Shown here: positions 55,978 to 64,000 of the stretch, one piece after another
Position numbering within the stretch: position 1 is the stretch's first letter
Layout of the letters: each line of letters opens with the position of its first letter
Source: an uncultured Haliea sp.
Lineage (GTDB): Bacteria; Pseudomonadota; Gammaproteobacteria; Pseudomonadales; Halieaceae
Direction: 5' to 3'
Length of the DNA: 64,000 nucleotides
Assembly (NCBI GenBank): GCA_913062625.1
Contig: CAJXWP010000003.1
Location: 5,640 to 69,639, forward strand
Made by a program: the position numbers and the translations under genes
The notes under the pieces: generated by a model
Seen by the model: the letters and a program-made list of their open reading frames with translations, nothing else
Databases searched by the model: none
Told to the model about the DNA's origin: nothing

Positions 55978-56078
55978 CTCCGCTGGAGCCGCTTAATTTC
56001 GGTATCGATCTTGGCACAATACCGCCTTATATTGAGTATCCTAGCGCGAACGTGATAAAAGCAATATGCATGCCACAG

Positions 56079-58022: not shown

Positions 58023-58925
58023 ATGCCCGACTCCAACGGACAGTACCGGGGGCGTTTTGCGCCCTCACCCACTGGCCCGCTCCATCTAGGGTCTCTGATT
58101 GCTGCCTTGGCAAGTTACCTAGACGCTCATCACTGCAACGGCAAGTGGCTAGTCCGCATGGAAGACCTTGACCCTCCCCGCGAGGAAACGGGCGCTGCCG
58201 ACAGCATCCTCTACAGCCTGCAATGTCACGGCCTGCGGTGGGACGACAATATCCTGTACCAGAGCGCGCGCTCCTCAGCATACGCCGCTGCACTGGAGAC
58301 TTTGTCTGATCGCGGCGACCTTTTTCCCTGTGACTGCACCCGCGCAACACTGGGCGCAAACGGCGCTTGTCAGGGCAGTTGTCGAACACCGCAGGCAAGC
58401 CTATCCGGCCCTGCCGCGATAAGAATAAGGATTCCTTATGCACAGGAAATTCTGTTCGTGGATAGACTGCAGGGCCCAGAACATACGTTGTTGGGTCAAT
58501 CTTTGCAGGATTTTGTCATAAAACGAAAGGACACACTGTATGCCTATCAGCTAGCAGTGACCGTCGACGATGCCGCACAGGGTATCACCCACATAGTGCG
58601 CGGGTCCGACCTGCTTGACTCAACACCACGTCAGGTGTTCCTCCAACAACGTTTAGGTTACTCTACCCCTCGCTATTGCCACCTCCCAGTCATAACGACT
58701 GGACAGGGACAAAAATTCAGCAAACAGAACCACGCGCCGGCGCTGGACAATAGCATGGCTCGCAGTAACCTGCTCCGTGCCTTGCGCTTCCTGCGCCAGT
58801 GCGAACCTCCTGCCACGCTGGAGAGTGTCGAGCAATTGCTTATGCACGCGATCGAGCACTGGTCACTCGAGCAAGTGCCAGCCGTGCCATCAATTCCTGC
58901 CGCCAATATCGGGCTGAGTGTATGA
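58023..58925 (+). CDS. gluQ: Glutamyl-Q tRNA(Asp) synthetase
   Basis: RFAPSPTGPLHLGS, RMEDLDPPR, YQLAVTVDD, KFSKQ; downstream of dksA. Confidence 0.95.
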   Translation: MPDSNGQYRGRFAPSPTGPLHLGSLIAALASYLDAHHCNGKWLVRMEDLDPPREETGAADSILYSLQCHGLRWDDNILYQSARSSAYAAALETLSDRGDLFPCDCTRATLGANGACQGSCRTPQASLSGPAAIRIRIPYAQEILFVDRLQGPEHTLLGQSLQDFVIKRKDTLYAYQLAVTVDDAAQGITHIVRGSDLLDSTPRQVFLQQRLGYSTPRYCHLPVITTGQGQKFSKQNHAPALDNSMARSNLLRALRFLRQCEPPATLESVEQLLMHAIEHWSLEQVPAVPSIPAANIGLSV

Positions 58926-59027: not shown

Positions 59028-59204
59028 ATGTACATCAACCGATTCCTTTTGCTCATTGTCGGCGTTGTGTTGATTTTTTTCCCTGCGATAGAGAGCTGGG
59101 TGGTCAGCTCAGAAGTTGCCTGGTACCGACCATACCAGTTATGGCTTTTGATCGTAGCTGCAGCCTACTGGAACCAGCGCAAGAGATATCCAGATGACCT
59201 TTAG
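59028..59204 (+). CDS. cbrX: CbrX-like 58-aa membrane peptide (below the ORF-track cut-off)
   Basis: Hand translation MYINRFLLLIVGVVLIFFPAIESWVVSSEVAWYRPYQLWLLIVAAAYWNQRKRYPDDL; overlaps the cbrA ATG by 11 nt. Confidence 0.85.
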   Translation: MYINRFLLLIVGVVLIFFPAIESWVVSSEVAWYRPYQLWLLIVAAAYWNQRKRYPDDL

Positions 59205-62172
59205 CCTGACTCAAATACTGCTGGTTATTGTTGCTTATCTTACCGGCTTGTTTGCAGTGGCTCATTTGGCCGACCGCGGTATCATCCCGAAACGTATTAC
59301 TCACCACCCTGCCGTCTATGTCCTTTCTCTGGGGGTATTCGCTGGAGCAATGGCTAGCAATGGCGTGGTTGCCATGGCCCACCAGTACGGCTACAACTTT
59401 TTACTGTACTACCTTGGCGTAGTCTTAATGTTTGTATTACCCCTTGTCCTGTTGATGCCTCTGTTGCGACTGTGCAGAGTTTATCAACTCTCCTCTCTGG
59501 CAGACGTTCTGACTTTCCGTTTTCGCAGCCCTTGGGTCGGGTCTGCGGTGACCGTTGCTATGTGCATCACGCTGCTTCCGCTGCTGGCGCTCCAAATTCA
59601 GGCGGTCGCTGAGAGTATCCATATTCTTGCTGGCGACAGTGCAAGCGAGTCGTTCGGTGGGAACCGAAATAACCTGCTGGCATTTCTTTTTTGCGTCATC
59701 ATCACTGTGTTTTCCATCCTATTCGGTACGCGCCACGTATCATCTCGGCACCGTAACACCGGTTTAGTGACTGCCATTGCGTTCGAATCGTTGGTTAAGT
59801 TAAGTGCTATGCTAATGCTCTTCTTCGCAGCGGTTTATGCCGTATTCGGAGGCATTACGGGGCTAGAACAGTGGTTGCTTGAAAATCCGCAGACGAGCAA
59901 TCAACTGGCACAGCCTATTCAGGGCGACGATGCCCGCGCCTTGTTGCTGATCTTTTTCGCTGGTGCAGTGTGTATGCCCCACATCTTTCATATGGCTTTT
60001 GCCGAAAACAACGACAGCCGAGATTTGCGCAGTGCCACTTGGGGGCTCCCGCTCTATTTGCTATTGCTGAGTCTACCGATTCTTCCGGTGACCTGGGCGG
60101 GCATCAAGCTGGGCCACGAGTTACCTATGGACTACACGGGACTTGCTATTGGCATGGCCCTGCAGTCCGGCGCAATCACTACCGCCGCTTTTGTAGCAGG
60201 CCTATCCGCCTCGAGTGCCACTATTATCATCACGACACTGGCACTGGCCAATATGTGCCTCAATCATTTGGTATTACCTTTTAGTCCACTGCAAATCAAT
60301 CGAGGGCAGGATATCTATGTTCAGCTCAAATGGCTTCGCAGGGCTCTGATTGCGATTTTGATTCTGGCCGGATATATCTTTTTTACCACGCTAAATGGCC
60401 GGCAGAGCCTCTCGCAACTGGCGTTGGTGGCGTTCACAGGCACACTGCAGTTTCTACCAGGCATCATTGCTACTCCCTATTGGCCCCGAGCGAACCGCAC
60501 AGGCCTTCTCGTTGGGCTCGCCGGCGGACTAGGCTTTTGGTTCTTCTCAATGCTGTTACCGCTGTTCGGAGGACAAAGCCCGGAACTACTGACCTCGTTC
60601 TACACCATGGTGCTAGGTCACAGTAATAACGTGTCGACCGCCACTGCACTGGTTTCACTGGGAATCAATACGGCCTTGTTCATTGCCGTTTCGCTCATAA
60701 CGAAAAGAAGCTCAGACGAGGAAAAAATTGCGGCGGAGATATACTCTATGGACGACCTCGCGCGCCCCACACGCCGAATATTGTCCGTCTATAGCCCGGC
60801 AGAATTTAGCCAGCGCCTAGCATTGTCTCTAGGCGAAAATACTGCAAAATCTGAAGTCGAGCGAGCGCTGAGGGAGCTGCAATTTTCACCCTCTGAGACC
60901 AGGCCCTATGCTCTGAGAGGCCTGCGCGCTCGACTAGAAGCAAATCTTTCCGGGCTACTGGGCCCATCCGTCGCCCACCGCATCATTGAAGGCCGCATTC
61001 CTTTCCTGCCCGGCGCGCATACCGACACCGAAGATATCCATCTGATAGAGCAAACCCTAGATCAGTCGCAACCTCACTTTACGGGTTTTGCGGCGGACCT
61101 AGATAATCTGCGCAGACACCACAGAGAAACGCTGGACAAACTGCCCATAGGCGCTTGCTCGATTAGTCCAGACGGCGAACTACTTATGTGGAATCAAAGT
61201 ATGGAGCGAATCACCGGGATCGCGCCAACGGATATTCTGGGATCTTTATTAGGCGCGATACCCCATCCATGGGGCTCCATTCTTGAGGGGTTTCTGCGAG
61301 GAAACACTGAAACAATGATCAAAAAAGAAGTCGTGATGGACAATAACCCGTCACGCTGGATTGATCTGCATAAAACACTGATTAAAGACAACCACTATAG
61401 CAATACAGTCATCATGGTGGAGGACATTACCGACCTCGAATTACTCGAAGAAGAGTTACTACAGAATGAGCGCTTGGCATCCATTGGTCGCCTCGCTGCC
61501 GGTGTTGCTCATGAAATCGGCAACCCCGTTACCGGCATCGCATGTCTGGCACAAAATCTCGAGTACGAATCAGATCCAAAGGAAATCCGTCACATGGCGC
61601 AGGATATCCTCAAGCAAACCAGTCGCGTCACACGGATAGTAGAATCACTGATGAACTTTTCGCACACAGGTTCATATTTGGAAAAGACGACATTGGCGCC
61701 AGCCAACCTAGCAGACTGTGTGGACGAGGCCGTTCATCTGTTGGCGCTAGACAGAGAAGCCAAACCGGTACAGTTTGACAATCAGTGCGACCGGGAATTA
61801 TTGGTCCTGGCAGATAGTCAGCGCCTGTTGCAGGTATTTATCAATCTGCTGGGAAACGCCAGGGACGCTTGTGACAGCGACGGGGAGGTCCATATACGGG
61901 CCAGCACAACGGGTGAACAGGTGCAAATTGATGTGGAAGACAACGGCAGCGGTATTCCACCAGGGCTACAAGCTCAGGTATTCGAGCCTTTCTTTACCAC
62001 CAAAGACCCAGGTGTCGGCACCGGACTGGGTCTAGCACTGGTATTTAGTATCATGGATGACATGAATGGTAAGGTTTATATCACGAGCCCGGTGAGCCTT
62101 GGCGTTAAGTGCGGTACCCGGGTTACCTTACATTTATCCTCCGCCCGTTACGGGCCGGACTTGTCAATGTAA
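59194..62172 (+). CDS. cbrA: CbrA: SLC5-like transporter-PAS-histidine kinase
   Basis: N-terminal multi-TM symporter-like domain, HEIGNP, GTGLGL; synteny dksA-gluQ-cbrXAB. Confidence 0.92.
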   Translation: MTFSLTQILLVIVAYLTGLFAVAHLADRGIIPKRITHHPAVYVLSLGVFAGAMASNGVVAMAHQYGYNFLLYYLGVVLMFVLPLVLLMPLLRLCRVYQLSSLADVLTFRFRSPWVGSAVTVAMCITLLPLLALQIQAVAESIHILAGDSASESFGGNRNNLLAFLFCVIITVFSILFGTRHVSSRHRNTGLVTAIAFESLVKLSAMLMLFFAAVYAVFGGITGLEQWLLENPQTSNQLAQPIQGDDARALLLIFFAGAVCMPHIFHMAFAENNDSRDLRSATWGLPLYLLLLSLPILPVTWAGIKLGHELPMDYTGLAIGMALQSGAITTAAFVAGLSASSATIIITTLALANMCLNHLVLPFSPLQINRGQDIYVQLKWLRRALIAILILAGYIFFTTLNGRQSLSQLALVAFTGTLQFLPGIIATPYWPRANRTGLLVGLAGGLGFWFFSMLLPLFGGQSPELLTSFYTMVLGHSNNVSTATALVSLGINTALFIAVSLITKRSSDEEKIAAEIYSMDDLARPTRRILSVYSPAEFSQRLALSLGENTAKSEVERALRELQFSPSETRPYALRGLRARLEANLSGLLGPSVAHRIIEGRIPFLPGAHTDTEDIHLIEQTLDQSQPHFTGFAADLDNLRRHHRETLDKLPIGACSISPDGELLMWNQSMERITGIAPTDILGSLLGAIPHPWGSILEGFLRGNTETMIKKEVVMDNNPSRWIDLHKTLIKDNHYSNTVIMVEDITDLELLEEELLQNERLASIGRLAAGVAHEIGNPVTGIACLAQNLEYESDPKEIRHMAQDILKQTSRVTRIVESLMNFSHTGSYLEKTTLAPANLADCVDEAVHLLALDREAKPVQFDNQCDRELLVLADSQRLLQVFINLLGNARDACDSDGEVHIRASTTGEQVQIDVEDNGSGIPPGLQAQVFEPFFTTKDPGVGTGLGLALVFSIMDDMNGKVYITSPVSLGVKCGTRVTLHLSSARYGPDLSM

Positions 62173-62261: not shown

Positions 62262-63695
62262 ATGCAAAAGATCCTCATTGTCGAAGATGAGCCCGTTATC
62301 AGGACTGCTTTGCGCCGTCTGCTCGAGCGGCACGACTTTCAGGTGAGCGAGGCCGGCTCAGTGCAGGAAGCGGAAAAAGATCACACTTTTAACGATTTTG
62401 ACCTCGTCATCAGTGACTTGCGCCTCCCGGGCGCACCCGGTACCGACTTAATTAAAAAAGCGGGGGATGTACCGGTATTAATTATGACCAGCTATGCCAG
62501 CCTGCGATCAGCCGTAGACTCCATGCGTATGGGCGCAGTGGACTATATCGCTAAGCCGTTCGATCACGGCGATATGGTGATTGCTGTTCAGCGCATTATT
62601 GCCGATCACCCCAGCGGTCGCTTTGCGGAAGAGTCTGCGACTATCGACGGGAGTTCCCCTGCGATGGACGGCATCATCGGCAATTGTCCTTCGATGCGAT
62701 TGCTCTTTGAGCATATCAAAAAAATGGCGCCAACTGACTCTACGGTGTTGGTGCTAGGTGAGACCGGGACGGGTAAGGAGTTGGTGGCGCGCAGCGTACA
62801 CGAGAGTAGCCTGCGCGCGGATAAGATCATGATTTCGGTTAACTGCGCTGCCATTCCAGATACTCTTATCGAATCTGAGCTATTTGGCTACGAAAAAGGC
62901 GCGTTCACCGGTGCGAATGCAAGCCGCATGGGGCTGATTGAAGCCGCGGATGGGGGCACGTTATTTCTTGATGAGATTGGGGAGCTGCCTATGGAGGCGC
63001 AAGCGCGCCTACTGCGCTTTATTCAAGAAGGAGAAATTCGTCGAATAGGGTCGGTGCATTCACGTAAGGTCAATGTCCGCCTGATCTGCGCGACCCATCG
63101 CAACCTGCAAATTCTGGCGGCGGAGGGGCTGTTCCGAAAAGATCTATTCTATCGGATAAATGTCCTTTGTTTGGCGCTCCCACCCCTGAGAGAACGGGGC
63201 AAAGATATCCTGTATCTGGCGGAGCGTATGCTGGAAACTCAGACAGGACGTGCTGGGAAAGGCATTATGCGGTTGTCTCCGCGGGCCATTCAAGCTATTA
63301 CAACTTACCAGTGGCCGGGAAATGTCAGAGAACTGGAGCACGCCATCGAACGTGCAGTCGTGCTCTCAAACAGTGAAGAAATCGACAATGAAGGACTCGG
63401 CATTGATCTCGAACTGGTCAACATCAACCGCATTCGTGGCCAGCAGAGCCTCAATACTGGGAATAACCCCAGTACCGTCAGGACAAATCACGATCCCGGA
63501 GAAGATCTGTCGTTGGAAGATTATTTTCAGCGCTTCGTATTGGAGCATCAGGACTCCATGAGCGAAACCGAGCTAGCGCAAAAGTTAGGTGTCAGCCGCA
63601 AATGCCTATGGGAGCGCCGCCAGCGATTTGGTATGCCTAGAAATAAGGGTAATGTGAATAATCGAGCCAAAATCACCGCTGTCGAGGAAAAATAA
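62262..63695 (+). CDS. cbrB: CbrB sigma54-dependent response regulator
   Basis: Receiver domain, [15 protein letters not shown]-terminus [16 protein letters not shown]...SRKCLWERR. Confidence 0.93.
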
Positions 63696-63697
63696 CC

Positions 63698-63745
63698 GTT
63701 ACCTGCGCCCGATCGCACACCTCAATTAGGAGTATTTTGGTAACA
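63698..63745. promoter_or_regulatory. Putative CbrB upstream activating sites
   Basis: GTTACC (63698) and GGTAAC(A) (63739) form an inverted pair resembling the TGTTAC subsites described for CbrB. Confidence 0.65.
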
Positions 63746-63819
63746 AAAAGATCCTTCATACCAGTATTTGAACAACTCTAAAAACCACAATCCTCTGATT
63801 AATATAGATAAAATTTAGT

Positions 63820-63835
63820 TGGCATGGAATATGCA
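63820..63835 (+). promoter_or_regulatory. Sigma54 (-24/-12) promoter
   Basis: TGGCATGGAATATGCA: GG-N10-GC spacing is exact. Confidence 0.85.
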
Positions 63836-63845
63836 GTGTCATGTG

Positions 63846-63939
63846 CAGCAGACGAATAAAAATAATAGCTGCAGCAATAAAAATAATAAAGCTTGATATG
63901 GATCTGGATGGGGGAAGATATCTTCCCTTCATTTTTTTT
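63846..63939 (+). ncRNA. Short CrcZ-like Hfq/Crc-sequestering sRNA candidate
   Basis: Follows cbrB and a sigma54 promoter; two AATAAAAATAATA tracts; ends at a hairpin plus U8; 5' end estimated from the promoter. Confidence 0.72.
63912..63939 (+). terminator. Intrinsic terminator
   Basis: GGGAAGATATCTTCCC palindrome followed by TTCATTTTTTTT. Confidence 0.8.
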
Positions 63940-64000
63940 GCTTATTACGCTAAGACTCAAGGCAATTGCCTGAAGGTTGACGGGGGGTATAGGTATTCAA

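Follow-up and report, generated by a model that had tools for sequence, protein, structure and literature searches.

A short RNA gene lying between cbrB and pcnB in an uncultured Haliea sp. is, on sequence grounds, a divergent positional orthologue of CrcZ that falls below the threshold of the curated family. In Halieaceae (OM60/NOR5-type) this crcZ counterpart probably gives rise to a CbrB/σ54-driven decoy for Hfq and Crc that is made in a 94-nt and a ∼286-nt form. The CrcZ of Pseudomonas, an RNA of ∼400 nt with five or six A-rich tracts, lifts catabolite repression by titrating Hfq with Crc. For the Halieaceae RNA, we infer dependence on CbrB and RpoN, binding to Hfq/Crc and an effect on catabolite repression. 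The window, that is the whole stretch of DNA analyzed, comprises 64,000 nt; positions beyond its end were read from L006, a fetched locus sequence running past the window end, for which the window coordinate equals the L006 coordinate + 63560.

The gene order at the locus is gluQ-cbrX-cbrA-cbrB-RNA-pcnB-folK, with the RNA on the same strand as cbrB and pcnB. This synteny was kept in 80 relatives and corresponds to the Pseudomonas order, gluQ-cbrX-cbrA-cbrB-crcZ-pcnB-folK. Beyond the window end, pcnB begins at L006 664 and is followed by folK; the protein-coding genes within the window are as follows.

58023-58925: gluQ, upstream of cbrX
59028..59204, plus strand: cbrX-like 58-codon membrane ORF, overlapping the cbrA start by 11 nt
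59194..62172, plus strand: cbrA, a 992-aa sensor kinase with an SLC5-like N-terminal domain, PAS, HisKA and HATPase
62262..63695, plus strand: cbrB, a 477-aa NtrC-family σ54 activator with receiver and AAA+ domains

The cbrX-like ORF matched chain X of PDB entry 10ed over all 58 residues (E = 2e-10), and residues 1-610 of CbrA matched 10ed_A (E = 1e-167); the Pfam domains PAS, HisKA and HATPase_c were found in the cbrA product. The translationally coupled cbrX-cbrA arrangement is kept outside Pseudomonadaceae also, as this cbrX homologue at window 59028-59204 illustrates. CbrB orthologues with 72-93% identity were present in 80 Halieaceae genomes, the same RNA locus being found 3′ of each, and the best 80 CbrB relatives were nearly all labelled Halioglobus, Haliea, Parahaliea, Congregibacter or other Halieaceae. 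That the RNA gene occupies the CrcZ position, and does so in a lineage other than Pseudomonas, had been proposed in a first-pass annotation of the window and is borne out by the gene order and by the Halieaceae origin of the locus. The counts given below refer to 81 Halieaceae loci, the source locus included. Halieaceae-type or Litorivivens-type cbrB-RNA loci were also observed in MAGs labelled Bacteroidia, Cryomorphaceae and Paracoccaceae (L047, L056 and L161), which are probably mis-binned contigs; the “Paracoccaceae” contig, the sequence of which is Litorivivens-like, was rejected as a true carrier.

Between the cbrB stop codon and the RNA lie the predicted elements of a CrcZ-type promoter.

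63697..63746, plus strand: CbrB-type upstream activating sequence (UAS), with CGTTACC at 63697-63703 and GGTAACAA at 63739-63746 (GGTAACA at 63739-63745)
63783..63795, minus strand: IHF-like site, a consensus match only, reading AATCAGAGGATTG on the minus strand (WATCAANNNNTTR with one mismatch), in an AT-rich spacer
63820..63835, plus strand: σ54 -24/-12 promoter TGGCATGGAATATGCA, with GG and GC at σ54 spacing

By itself, the promoter pattern occurred at chance level in the window (2 matches versus 1.06 expected), and its weight therefore comes from conservation: TGGCAY-N6-TGCW was present in 81/81 Halieaceae loci, 114-184 nt after the cbrB stop (125 nt after cbrB in the source genome). The second exact match in the window, TGGCATGCATATTGCT at 56060-56075 on the minus strand, lies between a 402-codon ORF (57287-56079), which ends 4 nt before it, and a downstream 243-codon ORF (55977-55246); one match per window is expected by chance. 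GTTAC-N36-38-GTAAC was found in 80/81 loci, starting 121-125 nt upstream of the -24 box, and a middle G(T/A)(T/A)AC subsite was additionally present in 48/81, that of the source genome being degenerate. The CbrB consensus in Pseudomonas is TGTTAC-N12-14-GTAACA-N15-19-GTAACA, of which two good subsites are enough (PMC8871633), and the putative Halieaceae sites fit this published consensus. An IHF-like YAA-N4-YTGDTW match occurred at -70 to -15 in an AT-rich spacer in 49/81 loci. At the sequence level, σ54 promoter, CbrB subsites and an IHF-like site are all represented, and rpoN is present in the source genome.

The RNA that would start from this promoter opens with a compact two-tract module, the parts of which are listed here together with the beginning of the longer form.

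63846..63939, plus strand: module 1, the short RNA form of ∼94 nt; the start is predicted from promoter geometry (±3 nt)
63844..63873, plus strand: stem P1, in which 63844-63849 pairs with 63868-63873, enclosing tract 1
63855..63867, plus strand: A-rich tract 1, AAUAAAAAUAAUA, lying in the hairpin loop and made up of about five ARN triplets, AGC among them
63876..63888, plus strand: A-rich tract 2, AAUAAAAAUAAUA(AA), predicted unpaired
63900..63939, plus strand: terminator T1, leaky, made up of the GGAUCUGGAUGGGG box, a GC-rich hairpin (63906-63934) and a U8 tail (63932-63939)
63940..64000, plus strand: start of the structured spacer of the long form, the remainder of which lies outside the window in L006

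The 13-mer AATAAAAATAATA occurred in two exact copies in the window, compared with 0.02 expected, and 0/100 shuffles reached two. In an alignment of 80 Halieaceae sequences, both AAUAAAAAUAA cores and the GGAyCUGGAUGGGG box before the hairpin were nearly invariant. Folding of each of the 80 loci separately placed tract 1 in a 17-23-nt loop of a short stem and left tract 2 unpaired. Five of the six P1 pairs changed on both sides (pair 8-36, for example, is CG in 38 sequences and UA in 26), giving a covariation score unmatched in 500 shuffles or in any slid register; these changes were counted after realignment to R1, a covariance model built only from Halieaceae module 1 sequences, and a model-fitted alignment somewhat favours the structure. 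Recovery of P1 needed both the per-sequence folds and the model-guided realignment, and RNAalifold applied to the MAFFT alignment recovered the terminator stem only. Module 1 of the source genome scored 90.2 bits with R1.

A simple scan called the hairpin-U8 ending at 63939 a terminator and gave no σ70-type promoter on the plus strand. The terminal hairpin stem was nearly invariant in sequence and showed little covariation, a sign of sequence-specific constraint. A proper U-tract follows neither hairpin in most Halieaceae, the T-rich tails after hairpin 1 having been acquired by the source's genus. The elements named in the first-pass annotation, namely activator-like sites, an exact -24/-12 promoter, two identical A-rich tracts of about five ARN triplets and a hairpin-U8 terminator, were all confirmed at the positions listed above. 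The TGCAGCA words, read there as a tandem duplicated module, proved instead to be the two arms of a covarying stem, UGCAGC/GCUGCA.

The window cuts the locus: a second, paralogous module lies 135-320 nt past its end.

L006 459-491: hairpin P3 of module 2
L006 493-506: tract 3 of module 2
L006 513-525: tract 4 of module 2
L006 545-571: terminator T2, from the terminator scan, about 235 nt beyond the window end

The tracts of module 2 read GAUAAAAAUAACAACA and ACAAAUAAGAAUAAU and are followed by the GAUCUGGAUGGGG box, as in module 1. Module 2 scored 53.5 bits with R1, a model derived from module 1 only, and a genome-wide R1 search of the source genome returned no further copy besides modules 1 and 2. 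Across the family, R1 detected a second module in 62 Halieaceae loci at E ≤ 0.01, and at least one further A-rich tract was seen downstream of hairpin 1 in 76/81 loci by sequence inspection; the 5/81 loci with module 1 only belong to Congregibacter, Chromatocurvus and one MAG. The description of the RNA in the first-pass annotation as a two-site species of ∼95 nt fits the predicted short form, with its two tracts in ∼94 nt, but overlooks the second two-tract module that follows, and the label “miniature” fits one-module relatives of the Congregibacter type better than the source genome.

In several other Halieaceae (L020, L023, L024, L029, L031, L035 and others), a conserved box, cTTGGGCAT-N12-TGTGTTTTTATA, was observed ∼30-60 nt ahead of where the tracts of module 2 begin. 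It is preceded by a palindrome, TGTAA-N5-TTACA, fits neither a σ54 nor a σ70 promoter and was absent from the source's own genus. The box could represent a second-promoter relic, an operator or an RNA structure.

Relatedness to CrcZ was assessed with covariance models in both directions. Positions 256-380 of the Rfam CrcZ model (RF01675) aligned to module 1 with 19.1 bits (E = 0.004 over 501 nt) and positions 262-380 aligned to module 2 with 14 bits; modules 1 and 2 were the first and third best matches of this model in the source genome, the third lying 90 nt past the window end. The score of module 1 compares with a gathering score of 95 bits, and the cut-off was reached by 0/20 related loci, as anticipated in the first-pass annotation, which had supposed that CrcZ models would miss the RNA. 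Conversely, R1 found the 3′-terminal 105 nt of 4/4 genuine CrcZ genes, defined as those scoring 350+ bits with RF01675, at 24-32 bits (E 3e-4 to 9e-3). The CrcZ 3′ end and module 1 share one order of elements, in which a stem whose loop is A-rich is followed by an unpaired A-rich tract, a linker and a GGGG hairpin. These reciprocal matches and the common element order argue that the unit is homologous to the last (3′-terminal) module of CrcZ, with sequence and structure homology to genuine CrcZ detectable in both search directions. A covariance model of the locus had been suggested along with the first-pass annotation, and reciprocal searches with R1 and the Rfam model link the unit to the CrcZ 3′ module.

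The two models were also run on 401 genomes of the same GTDB order. The Rfam CrcZ model passed its cut-off in two families only, gave sub-threshold full-length matches in six more and produced partial matches (positions 263-380) in two families at the same loci that R1 finds; no Halieaceae genome was matched at E ≤ 1e-5. R1 matched 59/401 genomes, which included 12/12 of the Halieaceae searched (the source among them) and members of ten other families. The matched units are σ54-promoted and lie upstream of pcnB, each having two to four tracts along with the shared 3′ box; in several genomes the unit occurs twice in tandem, both copies being preceded by TGTTAC/GTAACA sites and a -24/-12 box of their own. 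Among named genomes, a pattern scan found units in Oceanicoccus, Dasania, Zhongshania, strain HTCC2143 and Litorivivens lipolytica, and also placed them in MAGs of Spongiibacteraceae and Pseudohongiellaceae. Related one-module and twin-promoter versions occur across Cellvibrionales. Pattern matches in Sphingomonas, Actinomycetota and Krumholzibacteriia were put down to chance in GC-rich coding DNA and discarded.

At the Spongiibacteraceae-type loci L106, L107, L112, L113, L121, L133 and L160, isolate HTCC2143 included, cbrB and pcnB are separated by two tandem mini-CrcZ units. In those inspected in full (L106, L107, L112, L113 and L121), each unit has its own CbrB-type UAS and -24/-12 promoter. 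No publication on the twin mini-CrcZ genes of Spongiibacteraceae and relatives was found.

Evidence for the RNA itself came from assembled marine metatranscriptome contigs, which are without strand, true ends or local depth. L006 273-600 was covered up to hundreds-fold, compared with 3-6x for the neighbouring genes, the flanking genes being covered 30-100 times less than the RNA region. One contig spans 63833-63939 at ∼167x, versus ∼5x for cbrB and ∼3x for pcnB, and extends upstream to the -12 box, 13 nt ahead of the predicted start. In run X25, depth was ∼5.6x over cbrB, ∼3.4x over pcnB and 120-380x per contig over L006 273-470, with no contig from this run at L006 223-272 or 471-692. Neither L006 223-272 nor 601-692 was covered by any contig, and in no run did a contig lie over the promoter and UAS or over the pcnB leader. 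The RNA is abundant in the metatranscriptomes, its contig coverage being confined to L006 273-600.

Contigs from seven runs cross T1 into the spacer and five reach module 2. Those starting inside module 1 extend over L006 288-473 (X27), 311-532 (X30), 325-536 (X28), 350-529 (X24), 347-473 (X31) and 350-417 (X25), and a contig from run X26 covers L006 374-600. In run X25, spacer depth was above module 1 depth and no drop was seen beyond the hairpin-U8, though a U8 hairpin normally terminates efficiently. The contig coverage indicates that transcription from near the predicted start to slightly beyond T2 far exceeds that of the neighbours and that read-through of T1 is common. Given the second module and the contigs crossing T1, the products are most likely a 94-nt two-tract form and a ∼286-nt four-tract form. 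The RNA is among the more abundant transcripts of the source organism in ocean metatranscriptomes.

The contig end at the last U of U8 was rejected as a mapped 3′ end; because a variant with extra T exists, it may be an assembly-graph branch point. A separate X25 contig (L006 350-379, ∼33x) extends the U8 of hairpin 1 by eight more T, which could reflect slippage of the polymerase on the U-tract, strain variation or an artefact.

The same contigs bear on whether modules 1 and 2 might be two independent small RNAs, the first ending at U8 and the second transcribed from its own promoter in the spacer. This arrangement would resemble the Spongiibacteraceae twins, where tandem units each carry a UAS and a -24/-12 promoter, and it would account for hairpin 1 with U8 looking like a strong terminator, for the excess of spacer depth over module 1 depth in X25 and for the conserved box and palindrome upstream of module 2 in many Halieaceae. 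It is nevertheless unlikely, as no σ54 or σ70 consensus for an internal module 2 promoter was found on the plus strand of the source genome's spacer, hairpin 1 lacks a U-tract in most Halieaceae, and the contigs that begin at L006 288, 311 and 325 run across T1 to 473-536 in independent runs. A single RNA with a short and a long form is the preferred reading of these data.

The protein partners of a CrcZ-type RNA were found in the source genome. The search of the genome for crc and hfq that had been proposed with the first-pass annotation located both. The hfq gene adjoins miaA, and its product, compared with E. coli Hfq, keeps the sequence around the distal-face residues Y25, I30 and K31. Two ExoIII-like proteins are encoded. 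The first keeps the catalytic QETK, CADWN and SDH motifs, and its best matches are true exonucleases. The other, Crc-like protein has QD for QE, CGN (CGNWN) for CAD and SSH for SDH, so that three nuclease catalytic residues are lost, and its best PDB match is P. aeruginosa Crc (4jg3, E = 2e-64). Its gene lies in the order rph, crc-like, pyrE (G000:C14; L089 673-3088), and a location of crc between rph and pyrE is also that of Pseudomonas. The protein is accordingly predicted to be a catalytically dead Crc orthologue, and the genome as a whole encodes CbrA (an SLC5-type kinase), CbrB, Crc (inactive ExoIII-like) and Hfq.

A search for the Hfq/Crc regulon, in the form of AAnAAnAA near the start codons of crude ORF calls, yielded no clear regulon; it returned the usual excess of A over T upstream of starts and a mixed list that included a TonB-dependent receptor, an SDR, a pyrophosphatase, a sigma factor and PlsB. 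This null result, together with a 3′ box and stem that are conserved in sequence across several families with little covariation and so suggest a sequence-specific contact beyond termination, would suit a CbrB-controlled RNA that acts otherwise than as a sponge, either as a base-pairing Hfq-dependent sRNA or through binding of another protein to the GAyCUGGAUGGGG hairpin. Such a mode of action is improbable when set against the ARN tracts, which are the most conserved elements, are repeated 2-4 times and are displayed unpaired, a hallmark of distal-face Hfq decoys, and against the retention of crc and the homology of the unit to the CrcZ 3′ module.

That the RNA is a pcnB leader or attenuator, a cbrB 3′UTR or a small-protein gene has very little to recommend it, since its position directly upstream of pcnB on the same strand, the one contig starting upstream of the predicted start site and a mechanical 58-codon ORF from 63841 are outweighed by the lack of any contig over L006 601-692 (T2 to pcnB) or 223-272 (cbrB to RNA), by the 30-100 times lower coverage of the flanking genes, by the absence of the plus-strand ORF in 34/81 loci, the six nearest relatives included, and by tract spacing that shifts by 1-2 nt among relatives in a region conserved without codon periodicity. 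A coding reading was also rejected on account of ORFs that are inconsistent among relatives and indels between the tracts that are not multiples of three. The statement in the first-pass annotation that there is no ORF is mechanically wrong in that the 58-codon frame runs off the window, but the frame is not conserved.

In the decoy mechanism that we favour, poor carbon would be signalled by CbrA, and phosphorylated CbrB would bind the GTTAC/GTAAC sites just past its own stop codon. CbrB, probably aided by IHF bending, would then activate σ54 RNA polymerase at 63820-63835, with transcription predicted to start near 63846. Some transcripts would end at the hairpin-U8 (63939) to give a 94-nt RNA with two (ARN)5 tracts, and others would read through the spacer into module 2 and end at T2 to give an RNA of ∼286 nt with four tracts. 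Each tract would be long enough to fill most of the distal face of one Hfq hexamer, and the RNA would titrate Hfq, with Crc, from A-rich sites on catabolic and transport mRNAs, such that catabolite repression would be lifted.

A more speculative proposal, which we advance tentatively and consider rather less probable than its opposite, concerns the origin of the locus. The Halieaceae RNA may have arisen when two ancestral mini-CrcZ genes with separate promoters, a state still seen in Spongiibacteraceae, became fused. The second promoter would have decayed, and the first terminator would have turned into a point of tunable read-through, allowing a single CbrB-driven promoter to give two-site and four-site Hfq decoys in a regulated ratio. 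The unit, comprising a stem-looped tract, a free tract and the GAyCUGGAUGGGG hairpin, may likewise be the ancestral block of the 400-nt Pseudomonas CrcZ, and the invariant 3′ box may be a protein contact, for example with Crc or a ribonuclease.

According to a 2022 review, descriptions of the cbrA-cbrB-crcZ organisation are limited to Pseudomonas and Azotobacter, and the organisation is unique to Pseudomonadaceae (PMC8871633); the CbrAB-CrcZ module has likewise been called unique to Pseudomonadaceae elsewhere (PMC6296734). No account of CrcZ from marine or Cellvibrionales bacteria came up in a literature search, the coverage of which was not exhaustive. Against the restriction to Pseudomonadaceae given in these reviews stands a complete set of genes for a Cbr/CrcZ/Crc-Hfq circuit, a predicted Crc orthologue included, in Halieaceae, which are abundant coastal marine bacteria, with related RNAs in Spongiibacteraceae, Litorivivens and other Cellvibrionales. 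These Halieaceae and Cellvibrionales RNAs all go undetected by current RNA annotation. Given its abundance in ocean metatranscriptomes, the RNA could be used in situ to report carbon limitation or the substrate preference of marine heterotrophs. A natural series, made up of the one-module, two-module and twin-gene forms, bears on how many Hfq sites a sponge needs and on how CrcZ arose.

Compared with the CrcZ of P. aeruginosa, P. putida and Azotobacter vinelandii, the Halieaceae RNA has the same place between cbrB and pcnB, the same promoter layout and the same kind of A-rich AAnAAnAA tracts, and its genome encodes the same partners, cbrX, cbrA, cbrB, crc (between rph and pyrE), hfq and rpoN. 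It differs in size and in tract number, with 94 nt and two tracts or ∼286 nt and four tracts in place of ∼400 nt and five or six A-rich CA motifs. Unlike CrcZ, it consists of two recognisable paralogous modules with a leaky terminator between them, and the lineage-wide GAyCUGGAUGGGG box that precedes both Halieaceae hairpins is absent from the aligned Pseudomonas CrcZ 3′ ends. In the CrcY and CrcX RNAs of P. putida, P. syringae and A. vinelandii, duplication has likewise given more than one CbrB-controlled Hfq-titrating unit; those paralogues are full length, lie at distant loci and have promoters of their own, whereas the second Halieaceae unit is in tandem, is without a recognisable promoter and would be reached by read-through. 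The twin mini-CrcZ genes of Oceanicoccus, HTCC2143, Dasania and Pseudohongiellaceae MAGs have the 3′ box, hairpin, tracts and cbrB-pcnB position in common with the Halieaceae RNA; in those genomes each unit has a TGTTAC/GTAACA UAS and a -24/-12 promoter of its own, whereas in Halieaceae only the first unit does.
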